The notes below the pieces were generated by a model. The model saw nothing but the letters and a program-made list of their open reading frames with translations. It was not told the origin of the DNA and did not search any database. From an uncultured Agathobacter sp. (lineage in GTDB: Bacteria; Bacillota; Clostridia; Lachnospirales; Lachnospiraceae), in NCBI GenBank assembly GCA_934359755.1, contig CAKRLV010000009.1, positions 35,139 to 99,138 of the forward strand: a DNA stretch of 64,000 nt. The letters are read 5' to 3'. The translations under genes and the position numbers were made by a program. Numbering within the stretch: the stretch's first letter is position 1; each line of letters starts with the position of its first letter. This document shows positions 45,009 to 46,702 of this stretch, one piece after another.

Positions 45009-45788
45009 TCAATTAATTTTTCTATAATGTCCTCTTCCTGTAAATTCTATAATTCCATTATCTCTTAACATTTGCAATTGCTGTCTTATTTTGTCCTTTA
45101 CATGATGGTTATCTGGATGTTTCTCTGCAAGCAGCTCTTCAAATCTATATATCTGGTCAAGTGTAAAATCTTTATTCTCAATCATATTAACACAATTTAA
45201 CACATCTAAAGTCCATCCTCTAGCATCCAACTTACTGCCACGTAAGAATTCTGTTCTGTGTACTTTTGTAATTATCTTTTCAATAGGTATTTCCTTTTCA
45301 TTCTGTATAATATAAATTCTTCCCTCATCTGGAATCCGATTCAACAAAATGTTACATCCTGTCCATCCTGCTCGCCTTGCTGTATTTAACAATGTTTTTC
45401 TCTTTTCTATTATATCCGGTGAAAAAAAATATTTAGGTACCATAATCAAATTTTCAACTCTATAATTACTTTTATTGTAATGCATAAAGAAAAAATTTGG
45501 ATTATTAATTGAATTTATTCTCTCTATCATAGTTTTATATGCACCATCATTGACCTTTTTACCTATTGAAGTACCATTGCTTTTCAATTCATATTCCTCC
45601 CTACATGACGGGCAGAAAAAATCAGCGACCGGTCTGTTATTCTCAAAATGATATATATATTGATTTCCACAATAGGGACAAAACATATTACTCTCCGCCC
45701 ATGTTTCTGTTATTGCCCTTATTTTTTGAGACTTACTCTTATACTGTTCTCCATTTCGTTCATCCATTTGCAAATTCAAACTTATCAC
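45009..45788 (-). CDS. DpnI-like methyl-directed (G-m6A-TC type) restriction endonuclease, PD-(D/E)XK plus winged-helix
   Basis: Collinear similarity to DpnI: YKSKSQKIRAITETW, FCPYCGN...HFENNRPVADFFCPSC.EEYELKS, DGAYKTMIERI...NNPNFFFM, ARRAGWTGCNI, RGWTLDVLNC, KDKIRQQLQMLRD..IIEF.GRG.YRK. Confidence 0.75.
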   Translation of the reverse strand: MISLNLQMDERNGEQYKSKSQKIRAITETWAESNMFCPYCGNQYIYHFENNRPVADFFCPSCREEYELKSNGTSIGKKVNDGAYKTMIERINSINNPNFFFMHYNKSNYRVENLIMVPKYFFSPDIIEKRKTLLNTARRAGWTGCNILLNRIPDEGRIYIIQNEKEIPIEKIITKVHRTEFLRGSKLDARGWTLDVLNCVNMIENKDFTLDQIYRFEELLAEKHPDNHHVKDKIRQQLQMLRDNGIIEFTGRGHYRKIN

Positions 45789-46702
45789 TCCAATGCTGCT
45801 TGATATAAATCACTATTAAATCGTGTCTTTATTTTTTCTATATTTTCCTTCAAAATTTCTATAAGAATACAACTTCTCTTTTTATTTAAAGCTGCCACCC
45901 CTACAGCACCACTGCCAGCAAATGAATCTAATACAATTTCACCTTCATATGTAACGTATTCTAATATTTTTTCACATAATTCAACCGGCAGTTCACTCTG
46001 ATGTATTTTATTCTTCCTTGCGACTGGTTGAACATCAAACATAGTCGGCAGCATACCATTGCAGCCACTCATATAATGTTTTTCCCCTGTCATATCAGAC
46101 TTTTTCTTATCATACCTCATATTTCTAGCTTTGCCTTTTGAAAAAATCATTATGTCTTGTGTATTCTTAGCCTTTCTTCCTGTATTACTTACAAAAGTTC
46201 CCTTTTTCCATGGTACTTTAGAATAATAAATAAATCCTGCTTCTTTTGCATACTTTTTAATTTGGTATAAATACTCATAATTATTCTCATTCTCTGCGGG
46301 TAAAACCTCAACCAAAAAGCAGCCGTCTTTCAATACTCTAGCCTTTTCCTTAAAATCCTCTAATGTATATCGAAAACAATCATATAATGCAAAAGCTCTT
46401 GTTCCTCCTTTATTTGATTTAATATCTAACCAAGGATGATCTGTTAATATACAATCGATACTGCTATCCTTTAGCATAGATAAATCTCTCCCATTTCCTT
46501 CTATAAGCACACACTGTTCATTTTTGTTATCAATTGTTCTATATACACCCTTTGCCACTCGCTCAAACTTAACGCCTATTTTCTCATAAATACGTGCTCT
46601 AATGGTTTCTTGTGGCTTATCAGGATTTTGTTGATATGCATCTTGCAATGAAAAGCTTTCACAATCTTTAAAACAATTAAATAAATTTTCTACTAATGTC
46701 AT
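45785..46702 (-). CDS. Beta-class DNA methyltransferase (N6-adenine or N4-cytosine) with atypical motif IV DHPW
   Basis: Motif IV-like ILTDHPW precedes motif I DSFAGSGAVGVAA, which is a beta-type circular permutation. Start at MTLVEN (46702) is preceded by AAGGAGG. There is a 4-bp overlap with the DpnI-like gene. Confidence 0.65.
   Translation of the reverse strand: MTLVENLFNCFKDCESFSLQDAYQQNPDKPQETIRARIYEKIGVKFERVAKGVYRTIDNKNEQCVLIEGNGRDLSMLKDSSIDCILTDHPWLDIKSNKGGTRAFALYDCFRYTLEDFKEKARVLKDGCFLVEVLPAENENNYEYLYQIKKYAKEAGFIYYSKVPWKKGTFVSNTGRKAKNTQDIMIFSKGKARNMRYDKKKSDMTGEKHYMSGCNGMLPTMFDVQPVARKNKIHQSELPVELCEKILEYVTYEGEIVLDSFAGSGAVGVAALNKKRSCILIEILKENIEKIKTRFNSDLYQAALE

Follow-up and report, generated by a model that had tools for sequence, protein, structure and literature searches.

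How can a restriction enzyme that cuts only methylated DNA be encoded together with a DNA methyltransferase? To our knowledge, modification-dependent restriction enzymes are thought to work alone, and a linked methyltransferase looks useless or suicidal. The question is raised by two genes in a stretch of 64,000 nucleotides from an uncultured Agathobacter sp. (assembly GCA_934359755.1, contig CAKRLV010000009.1, positions 35,139 to 99,138; hereafter the window), where the gene of a DpnI-like nuclease overlaps that of a β-class methyltransferase with an unusual catalytic motif. A first reading, made from the sequence alone, had called this combination paradoxical, and the paradox proved to be real: the intact pair is conserved, and no constitutive Dam-like role is possible for the methyltransferase. 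We found that the pairing is a conserved mobile module present in several phyla, in gut and rumen bacteria, and no local oddity. The pair comprises the following features (window coordinates):

45009-45788, minus strand: DpnI-family type IIM restriction endonuclease, 259 amino acids (aa), assigned from Pfam, PADLOC and PDB matches and from residue conservation
about 45018-45227, minus strand: winged helix (wH) of the nuclease
about 45240-45779, minus strand: PD-(D/E)XK domain of the nuclease
45785-45788, minus strand: GTGA, the 4-bp start/stop overlap between the methyltransferase TGA and the nuclease GTG (translational coupling)
45785-46702, minus strand: methyltransferase of the DHP(W/Y) subfamily, 305 aa, with an N-terminal wH and a β-class amino-methyltransferase domain, assigned from Pfam and from an AlphaFold2 (AF2) model searched with Foldseek
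45908-45922, minus strand: motif I of the methyltransferase, FAGSG (S-adenosylmethionine binding), residues 261-265
46430-46441, minus strand: motif IV of the methyltransferase, DHPW (D88-W91), aligned by HMMER with SPPY of the N4-cytosine (N4C) methyltransferase 8s9m
46523-46702, minus strand: N-terminal wH of the methyltransferase, residues 1-60, with the recognition helix ETIRARIYEKIG, assigned by hhalign profile comparison; the helix is invariant across the family
46712-46718, minus strand: Shine-Dalgarno sequence AAGGAGG of the methyltransferase, 8 nt upstream of its ATG at 46702, read from the sequence
46727-46736, no strand assigned: GATCAAGATC element within GGATCAAGATCC, with two GATC sites, a putative promoter/operator 24 nt upstream of the methyltransferase ATG

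By every sequence criterion, the window nuclease is predicted to be a Gm6ATC-dependent enzyme, its specificity following from residue conservation, and it is by the same token a further member of the already known DpnI family. It matched Pfam DpnI (PF06044; expectation value (E) 1e-80, profile positions 1-181 of 183) and DpnI_C (PF17726; E 2e-35, profile positions 1-70 of 70) end to end, as well as the PADLOC family mREase_II (type II methyl-directed restriction enzyme; E 2e-105). The sequence of the R.DpnI crystal structure (PDB 4esj) aligned with it collinearly over residues 13-258 at 51% identity (E 6e-84), which bears out the earlier assignment of both domains to a DpnI-like, methyl-dependent nuclease. 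The roles of the DpnI residues were taken from two structure papers (PMC4117772, PMC3424567). The catalytic residues D53, E64 and K66, the G:C-reading residues S17, N48, R126 and R135, and the wH methyl contacts K229, R231, Q232 and Q235 were kept in the window nuclease and in 30 of 30 methyltransferase-linked homologues from other genomes. The methyl cleft (L129, R135, W138 and G140) was complete in the window nuclease and kept in the linked homologues, where position 138 was W in 29 and Y in one; W138Y is a tolerated natural DpnI variant (PMC4117772, PMC3424567). At one further wH contact, E228, the window nuclease carries D, a conservative change. The methyl-recognition residues of DpnI, the absence of which had been named as evidence against the sequence-only reading, were therefore all retained upon alignment, both in the window and in the 30 linked homologues.

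The second protein (METHYLTRANSFERASE) matched Pfam N6_N4_Mtase (PF01555; E 2e-25, profile positions 1-220 of 221) and showed motif IV before motif I, the circularly permuted order of the β class. An AF2 model was built from an alignment of 38 methyltransferase sequences with 60-95% identity (alignment A4), with a predicted local distance difference test (pLDDT) score of 70.8 and a predicted template modelling (pTM) score of 0.75. Its top Foldseek neighbours were all β-class DNA amino-methyltransferases (8s9m, 2zie, 6pbd, 5hfj and 1g60; E 1e-13 to 1e-11), the best match being an N4C methyltransferase. In line with the Pfam match, the motif order and the alignment of DHPW with SPPY, the earlier identification of a β-class enzyme with a DHPW motif was confirmed.

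The canonical form of motif IV, (D/N/S)PP(Y/F/W), is not followed here, as a histidine replaces the first proline throughout the subfamily. D88, H89, P90 and W91, together with F261, A262, G263, S264 and G265 of motif I, were invariant across A4. DHPW was present in 110 of 120 close homologues, and representatives of 50%-identity clusters read DHP(W/Y) down to about 38% identity, with occasional variants among them (DPPW, DYPW, DFPW, DAPH and DSPY). The protein collection contained 1886 homologues, mostly from Lachnospiraceae metagenome-assembled genomes (MAGs), and when the protein database was searched with a profile a second time, the diversity hardly grew (matches of 61-99% identity). Since the motif is conserved throughout a large subfamily, the possibility that DHPW is a degenerate motif was rejected. 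The invariance of DHPW and FAGSG, along with the occurrence of DPPW variants in the family, indicates selection on the catalytic pocket, and we infer from these sequences that the methyltransferase is catalytically intact. A motif IV starting with D is that of adenine enzymes, while S is typical of N4C enzymes. The sequence-only reading had left a choice between a different specificity, a catalytically altered enzyme and a regulatory partner; with DHPW as the hallmark of a large subfamily, catalytic alteration has become less likely and a different or conditional substrate likelier.

As judged from the sequence, methyltransferase and nuclease are operonic whichever start codon applies. The 4-bp overlap claimed earlier was read at the junction itself, and its closest homologues share this junction (loci L009-L012, of which L012 comes from the cultured Eubacterium segne BX4); a possible alternative TTG start of the nuclease, 9 nt further in, has the better Shine-Dalgarno spacing.

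To what extent the two genes belong together was analyzed by scanning one genome per GTDB species with an 8-sequence methyltransferase alignment as query, which yielded 80 loci that were then searched for a nuclease. Most of these loci are MAG fragments, and the tallies were made by tblastn with fixed thresholds. In the close clade, defined by a methyltransferase at least 66% identical to that of the window (53 evaluable species-representative loci), a nuclease was adjacent in 43 loci (81%). A DpnI-like nuclease adjoined the methyltransferase in 29 of the 53: in Lachnospiraceae its gene overlapped that of the methyltransferase on the downstream side, in Treponema it preceded it on the same strand, and in Schwartzia the two genes were divergent. 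An unannotated wH-nuclease of ~240 aa took this place in 12 loci, an HNH protein in one and a McrBC-like pair in another (Clostridium carboxidivorans P7); a DpnI remnant was found in two, and the remaining eight had no such neighbour. The HNH and McrB-like partner proteins have a common N-terminal domain. As the partner types were interspersed on the clustering of the methyltransferases, the partners appear to have been swapped repeatedly, and the identities of the methyltransferase and its DpnI-like partner co-varied (r = 0.82). The methyltransferase-nuclease linkage is thus under selection, with variable gene order and exchange of partners. In abundant bacteria of the gut and the rumen, a single clade of intact, atypical methyltransferases is found in repeated and specific association with such nucleases, of which there are at least four kinds.

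Below 66% identity, 21 of 22 evaluable loci lacked such a nuclease neighbour. Methyltransferases of this distant sister clade, at most about 64% identical to that of the window, were found between VirD4/TraG and PrgI/VirB4 in conjugation modules, or on megaplasmids among small unknown genes. In three cluster representatives (P0124, P0127 and P0130), the DHP(W/Y) methyltransferase had Macro domains fused to it or inserted into it, together with DarT1-associated NADAR domains at the C-terminus; this suggests polyvalent counter-defence proteins that join methylation with removal of DNA ADP-ribosylation. A tblastn search of GenBank phages with the methyltransferase gave no match, and the cassette was present once in IMG/VR, on a 9-kb fragment; a phage origin was rejected on these grounds.

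The nucleases that serve as partners do not generally travel with a methyltransferase. At 43 of 47 evaluable metagenome loci, the ~240-aa wH-nuclease had no DHP(W/Y) neighbour, and at 40 of 47 no β-methyltransferase match of any kind. Likewise, in a published survey, 87% of the wH-fusion nucleases had no methyltransferase within a distance of three genes, and the directly adjacent amino-methyltransferases that it names as examples are frameshifted (PMC11037411). Because the partner families are mostly solitary and need no methyltransferase, the latter would be an accessory rather than a protector.

The ~240-aa family itself (L028:1226-1936, L035:1261-1980, L036:5936-6679, L037:5929-6684, L040:5911-6660, L050:5919-6662 and L067:3880-4590) combines an N-terminal winged helix (ASIRRIVQ..FKIKPGLWAL) with a C-terminal nuclease-like half (H.YYQG, QDKN, VDVIWFNER, EVEH(S/T)TDI). 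It matched nothing in Pfam, NCBIfam or PDB, even when searched as a profile, and matched PADLOC REase_II weakly, on the C-terminal half only. It alternates with DpnI as partner of the methyltransferase, and we regard it as a candidate new modification-dependent restriction enzyme.

The N-terminal domain offers a link between the methyltransferase and its partners. In hhalign comparisons, its wH matched the wH of DpnI_C (probability 88%, E 3e-6) and that of the alternative ~240-aa partner (probability 96%, E 6e-9). R35 aligned with DpnI R231, while the remaining residues of the DpnI methyl pocket differed. The recognition helix, ET[IV]RARIY, was identical in cassettes with a GATC pair, with other elements or with no element upstream. 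This invariance, whatever stands upstream, suggests that the wH may read a constant DNA feature rather than a local operator. The wH does not look like an operator-specific autoregulator either, as the recognition helix showed no covariation with the upstream element.

With regard to the upstream element, 13 other loci with diverged flanks each contained a single identical GATCAAGATC 10-mer, which preceded the methyltransferase at a start-to-start distance of 33-40 nt. In Treponema-type cassettes, which have the order nuclease, small open reading frame (ORF), methyltransferase, the small ORF is preceded by CTTGATC-N13-GATCAA(G/A/T)GATC. Either this GATCAAnGATC form or GATCAAGATC is conserved ahead of the methyltransferase in cassettes of both Firmicutes and Spirochaetes. 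Within 100 nt upstream of the methyltransferase, the linked clade had 7.0 GATC sites per kb, compared to 1.47 per kb elsewhere in these loci (4.8-fold); in the orphan clade, this 100-nt stretch showed no GATC enrichment. The element was degenerate in L003/L004 and in L013, where DpnI is lost or decaying. The GATC pair was also missing from Firmicutes cassettes linked to the wH-nuclease. GATC sites in promoter hexamers make promoters methylation-sensitive in Dam+ bacteria, and such sensitivity to GATC methylation is a more probable effect of the element than operator-specific repression by the wH.

Three further observations concern the same region. Most Lachnospiraceae cassettes have a second conserved box, (A)GTCC-N8-10-G(G/T)AC(A), on the upstream side of the GATC pair (alignment A5); in the window it lies at about 46745-46765. 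In L016-L018, a long palindrome, TATAGTATTAT..ATAATACTATG, replaces the GATC pair. The small ORF between nuclease and methyltransferase (~65 aa, beginning MKSFIFYTSEGITLSPNN...) is conserved and located just after the triple-GATC element (L045:4790-4990, with equivalents in L034, L041, L042, L044 and L047-L049).

The window itself contains 86 GATC sites, which DpnI would cut if they were methylated; the methyltransferase can therefore not act constitutively on both strands of chromosomal GATC and is no constitutive Dam-like enzyme. Indirect evidence on what it does came from three sides. Firstly, GATC was strongly under-represented in the window (observed/expected 0.37), as GATC-directed restriction over a long time might leave it, although this is not diagnostic. 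Other palindromic tetramers were rare as well, with observed/expected values of 0.25 for GGCC and 0.40 for CTAG.

Secondly, C. carboxidivorans P7 (L033; CP011803, about 813.5-814.4 kb) encodes an intact, 70%-identical homologue directly upstream of genes listed in REBASE as Type IV.2 and IV.3. Single-molecule real-time (SMRT) and bisulfite sequencing of this strain, where the homologue is known from its gene alone, detected six m6A motifs, none with GATC, and no m4C or m5C (PMC10745947). The eight REBASE-derived methyltransferases listed in that study do not include the L033 homologue, and one of the motifs, AGAAGC, was ascribed to the Type III Mod by elimination only (PMC10745947), an assignment that may be open to revision. 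The omission from the list suggests that motif-based surveys overlook the family, which is a possible reason why the pairing went unnoticed.

Thirdly, in L003 (5850-10469; also in L004), adjacent to rpsI, an intact methyltransferase 85% identical to that of the window is followed by a 55-residue DpnI remnant (residues 68-122) and, beyond it, by a 711-aa double D12 methyltransferase, RE_AlwI (GGATC) and then GmrSD. DpnI appears to have been replaced here by a restriction-modification (R-M) system that methylates GATC, which recalls the DpnI/DpnII cassette polymorphism of pneumococci. A DpnI remnant next to a GGATC-methylating system, with the methyltransferase still intact, is what would be expected if the nuclease cuts Gm6ATC and the DHPW enzyme gives no protection.

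In order to reconcile an intact methyltransferase with a nuclease that would cut what a Dam-like enzyme makes, we tentatively favour, while holding it somewhat short of probable, that the methyltransferase is a conditional writer, which would supply or complete the 6mA mark (N6-methyladenine) read by its nuclease; activity, substrate and control are those that the sequence context suggests. A mobile restriction cassette of roughly 2.8 kb would then have a DpnI-family type IIM nuclease as its effector. This nuclease would cut GATC only when the adenines are N6-methylated, and its targets would be phages and plasmids with Dam-type methylation, in a host that does not itself methylate GATC. The partner subfamily, presumably descended from orphan methyltransferases of conjugative elements, would be guided by its wH to foreign, single-stranded or partly methylated GATC DNA, where it would make or complete the mark for the modification-dependent partner to cut ("mark and cut"), and this cutting partner may be the DpnI-like nuclease, the unannotated wH-nuclease, the HNH protein or the McrBC-like pair. 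Through the GATC pair in the methyltransferase promoter, expression would depend on whether Dam-type methylation appears in the cell.

A more specific form of this proposal, which we regard as unlikely, makes the DHP(W/Y) enzyme a reader-writer, the wH of which recognises hemimethylated or otherwise foreign GATC while the catalytic domain methylates the other strand or nearby sites. Were this so, hemimethylated or sparsely methylated invader DNA, including Dam+ phage during replication and the DNA that Dam+ donors pass on by conjugation or transformation, would be turned into a fully methylated nuclease substrate; in the extreme case, any Dam-type methylation would be amplified into a suicidal cut-everything response. 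Such an enzyme would represent a new immune logic, in which amplification of a mark precedes modification-dependent cleavage, and the first bacterial maintenance-type adenine methyltransferase.

Several points weigh against the conditional writer. We infer the writing step from context only. Leaky de novo methylation of GATC would be lethal beside DpnI, so that tight control would be required, and since hemimethylated DNA is cut poorly by DpnI (PMC3424567), a purely single-strand-specific writer would make poor substrates. The GATC pair is missing from roughly half of the DpnI-linked cassettes, and the Poisson probability of the upstream enrichment, 2e-13, ignores shared ancestry. Further, the relatives on conjugative elements read more naturally as ordinary anti-restriction methyltransferases, and AGAAGC could be the product of the P7 homologue, which would favour an ordinary specificity unrelated to GATC.

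The last two points lead to the main rival, which we rank second and consider possible, if rather doubtful: an independent, compatible 6mA methyltransferase, the site of which (e.g., asymmetric and modified on one strand) never yields fully methylated GATC. It would serve a purpose of its own, such as shielding against other restriction systems, inherited from conjugative-element ancestors, and would travel with nucleases because no conflict arises. Its orphan relatives in type IV secretion system operons, on megaplasmids and in Macro/NADAR fusions, like counter-defence methyltransferases (PMC5512222), speak for such an enzyme, as do the conserved catalytic motifs, the survival of the methyltransferase after the loss of DpnI in L003, and the P7 motif that was assigned by elimination. 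However, an independent enzyme leaves unexplained why four fifths of the close clade adjoin a nuclease while essentially none of the distant clade does, why partners are swapped repeatedly, gene order changes and the genes are translationally coupled, and why the wH is homologous to those of the partners and a GATC pair lies upstream. A protective methyltransferase, by contrast, would place a second mark at or next to GATC (e.g., N4 on the cytosine) that blocks the nuclease, so that only foreign Gm6ATC lacking this mark is cut and the cassette could live in hosts whose DNA is, or is becoming, Dam-methylated. DpnI forms a hydrogen bond with N4 of the GATC cytosine (PMC4117772), so that methylation at this position could interfere, and PF01555 includes N4C methyltransferases, as does the head of the Foldseek list. 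Target-like GATC sites lie in the methyltransferase's own promoter, and a methyltransferase-first operon with start/stop overlap and variable order of the two genes is typical of R-M systems. We nevertheless find protection quite unlikely: motif IV begins with D instead of the S seen in N4C enzymes such as 8s9m, P7 shows no m4C, m5C or GATC modification, the partner families are mostly solitary and need no protector, and DpnI was lost where GGATC methylation arrived, despite the intact methyltransferase.

Two further explanations were considered. If the methyltransferase-like protein were non-catalytic, it could be an operon regulator or a DNA-targeting subunit, acting through its wH and perhaps through S-adenosylmethionine binding. 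The non-canonical motif IV, the palindrome-like element upstream, the absence of the P7 homologue from the REBASE list and of any motif attributed to it, and a DNA-binding domain at the N-terminus like that of the autoregulatory M.SsoII-type methyltransferases would all fit. The invariance of D88, H89, P90, W91 and FAGSG, the DPPW variants in the family and the lack of covariation between recognition helix and upstream element make this distinctly improbable. As for an ordinary type II R-M system, in which the DpnI homologue would have switched to unmethylated DNA and the methyltransferase would protect the host, gene organisation alone speaks for it. At 51% identity, the window nuclease appears to retain the full methyl-dependent apparatus of DpnI, as do 30 of 30 linked homologues, and DpnI pocket mutants never acquired activity on unmethylated DNA (PMC4117772), so that we give this explanation hardly any credence.

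Whether or not the methyltransferase proves to be a conditional writer, its function bears on modification-dependent defence. Should it feed, tune or control the nuclease, the cassette would stand for a novel form of restriction, and enzymes with an unusual preference among 6mA substrates might be obtained from it. Should it be no more than compatible, its specificity would still show which methylation patterns are able to coexist with a 6mA-dependent defence.

Parts of the arrangement have known counterparts. R.DpnI of Streptococcus pneumoniae (type IIM; PDB 4esj and 4kyw) is like the window nuclease in its two-domain architecture and functional residues, and the pneumococcal DpnI cassette, like that of the window, occupies a chromosomal site that is polymorphic and can be taken instead by another R-M system related to GATC (L003 vs. 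the window, beside rpsI). The pneumococcal cassette carries dpnC and dpnD and is devoid of a methyltransferase, whereas that of the window has an intact, co-translated one in a conserved pairing. DpnA (M2.DpnII) of the DpnII cassette is reportedly a β-class GATC methyltransferase that prefers single-stranded DNA; its motif IV is the canonical DPPY. Compared by description, DpnA is, like the window methyltransferase, a β-class accessory of a GATC-directed cassette, and provides a precedent for an incoming single-stranded substrate. However, it protects DNA, accompanies a methylation-blocked nuclease and is not known to have a wH domain, in contrast to the window methyltransferase with its wH and its methyl-dependent partner. 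Methyltransferases of the M.SsoII and M.EcoRII type, C5 enzymes of classical R-M systems, repress their own promoter by means of an N-terminal helix-turn-helix. The window methyltransferase likewise has an N-terminal DNA-binding domain and a conserved promoter element; unlike in that type, the recognition helix stays the same throughout its family, even where the upstream element differs or is missing.

The wH fusion endonucleases, 6mA-dependent type IV enzymes (Helbrecht et al. 2024, PMC11037411), have a DpnI-type wH sensor and mostly stand alone; the window nuclease falls into their PD-(D/E)XK-wH class. In that survey, adjacent N4mC/6mA methyltransferases were rare, the DHP(W/Y) partner clade was not described, and the ~240-aa nuclease with its N-terminal wH is absent from the architectures reported. 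In its profile, the distant sister clade matches the orphan and counter-defence methyltransferases known from conjugative elements and polyvalent proteins (Iyer et al. 2017, PMC5512222). Unlike these, the window clade is found outside conjugative surroundings, in chromosomes, where modification-dependent nucleases accompany it. "DHPW" and "DHPY" occurred in the literature only in unrelated uses, and no described methyltransferase/DpnI-like operon was found in the searchable literature, REBASE itself not having been queried. As far as this literature shows, the DHP(W/Y) wH-methyltransferase clade, its obligate-looking tie to modification-dependent nucleases, the GATC-pair element and the 240-aa wH-nuclease are apparently undescribed.

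In the window, the cassette and its surroundings comprise the following:

43690-43995, no strand assigned: left direct-repeat copy, with a partial DUF7724 gene and a terminator-like hairpin; 77-94% identity to the right copy at a spacing of about 3190-3300
43970-46780, no strand assigned: shared mobile cassette of DUF6061 gene, 40-aa peptide gene, nuclease and methyltransferase, with 83% nucleotide identity to a Lachnospira MAG (L009)
44127-44366, plus strand: DUF6061 gene, conserved in L009
44496-44618, plus strand: gene of a 40-aa hydrophobic peptide (MKSYKGGMPMLTLESLIAVLGFGLTCFELGYTLGNKSHKK), a cassette member
46877-47293, no strand assigned: right direct-repeat copy, with the DUF7724 gene (46858-47127) and an upstream hairpin (47197-47222)
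47648-48263, plus strand: toxin-antitoxin pair HicA (47648-47830; PF07927 HicA_toxin, E 3e-20) and HicB (47862-48263; PF15919 HicB_lk_antitox, E 9e-12)

Direct repeats of about 300-400 bp (repeat families D2, D3, D7, D8 and D9) thus bracket the cassette. In several other genomes it was also found just downstream of rplM-rpsI, and the recurrence of this site across genomes points to an insertion hot spot. The adjacent HicAB pair that had been proposed from the sequence was recovered, both genes being matched by Pfam in the order HicA, HicB; HicAB was not found beside the cassette in the other loci. The small defence island proposed along with it stands in part: HicAB is real, and relatives of the cassette occur in true defence islands, elsewhere among type IIG R-M, GmrSD and HEPN genes and in P7 among Type IV and Type I systems, while in the window itself the island is loosely and modestly supported.

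The 40-aa peptide showed 97.5% protein identity to its counterpart in L009 (2668-2787), compared to 83% identity of the cassette DNA, and 47% identity to one near another cassette (L056:6355-6462). On account of the 97.5% protein identity, the gene is probably real. The peptide matched no Pfam family at E up to 10, and a type I toxin-like or holin-like nature is a guess only.

To the left of the cassette, a GFO/IDH/MocA oxidoreductase ORF (42708-43901) has an N-terminus with a partial DUF7724 match, and its annotated start is probably an artefact of the duplicated DUF7724 fragment. On the right, a 110-aa ORF (47102-47434, minus strand) was rejected as a gene, as it matched no family and two terminator-like hairpins lie within it (at 47197-47222 and 47386-47409); the sequence, upstream of the DUF7724 gene, is probably non-coding. 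Further to the left, an AT-rich intergenic stretch (28% GC; 42264-42332, 42361-42472 and 42463-42514) harbours tandem repeats of 17 and 24 nt as well as a perfect palindrome of 25 nt.

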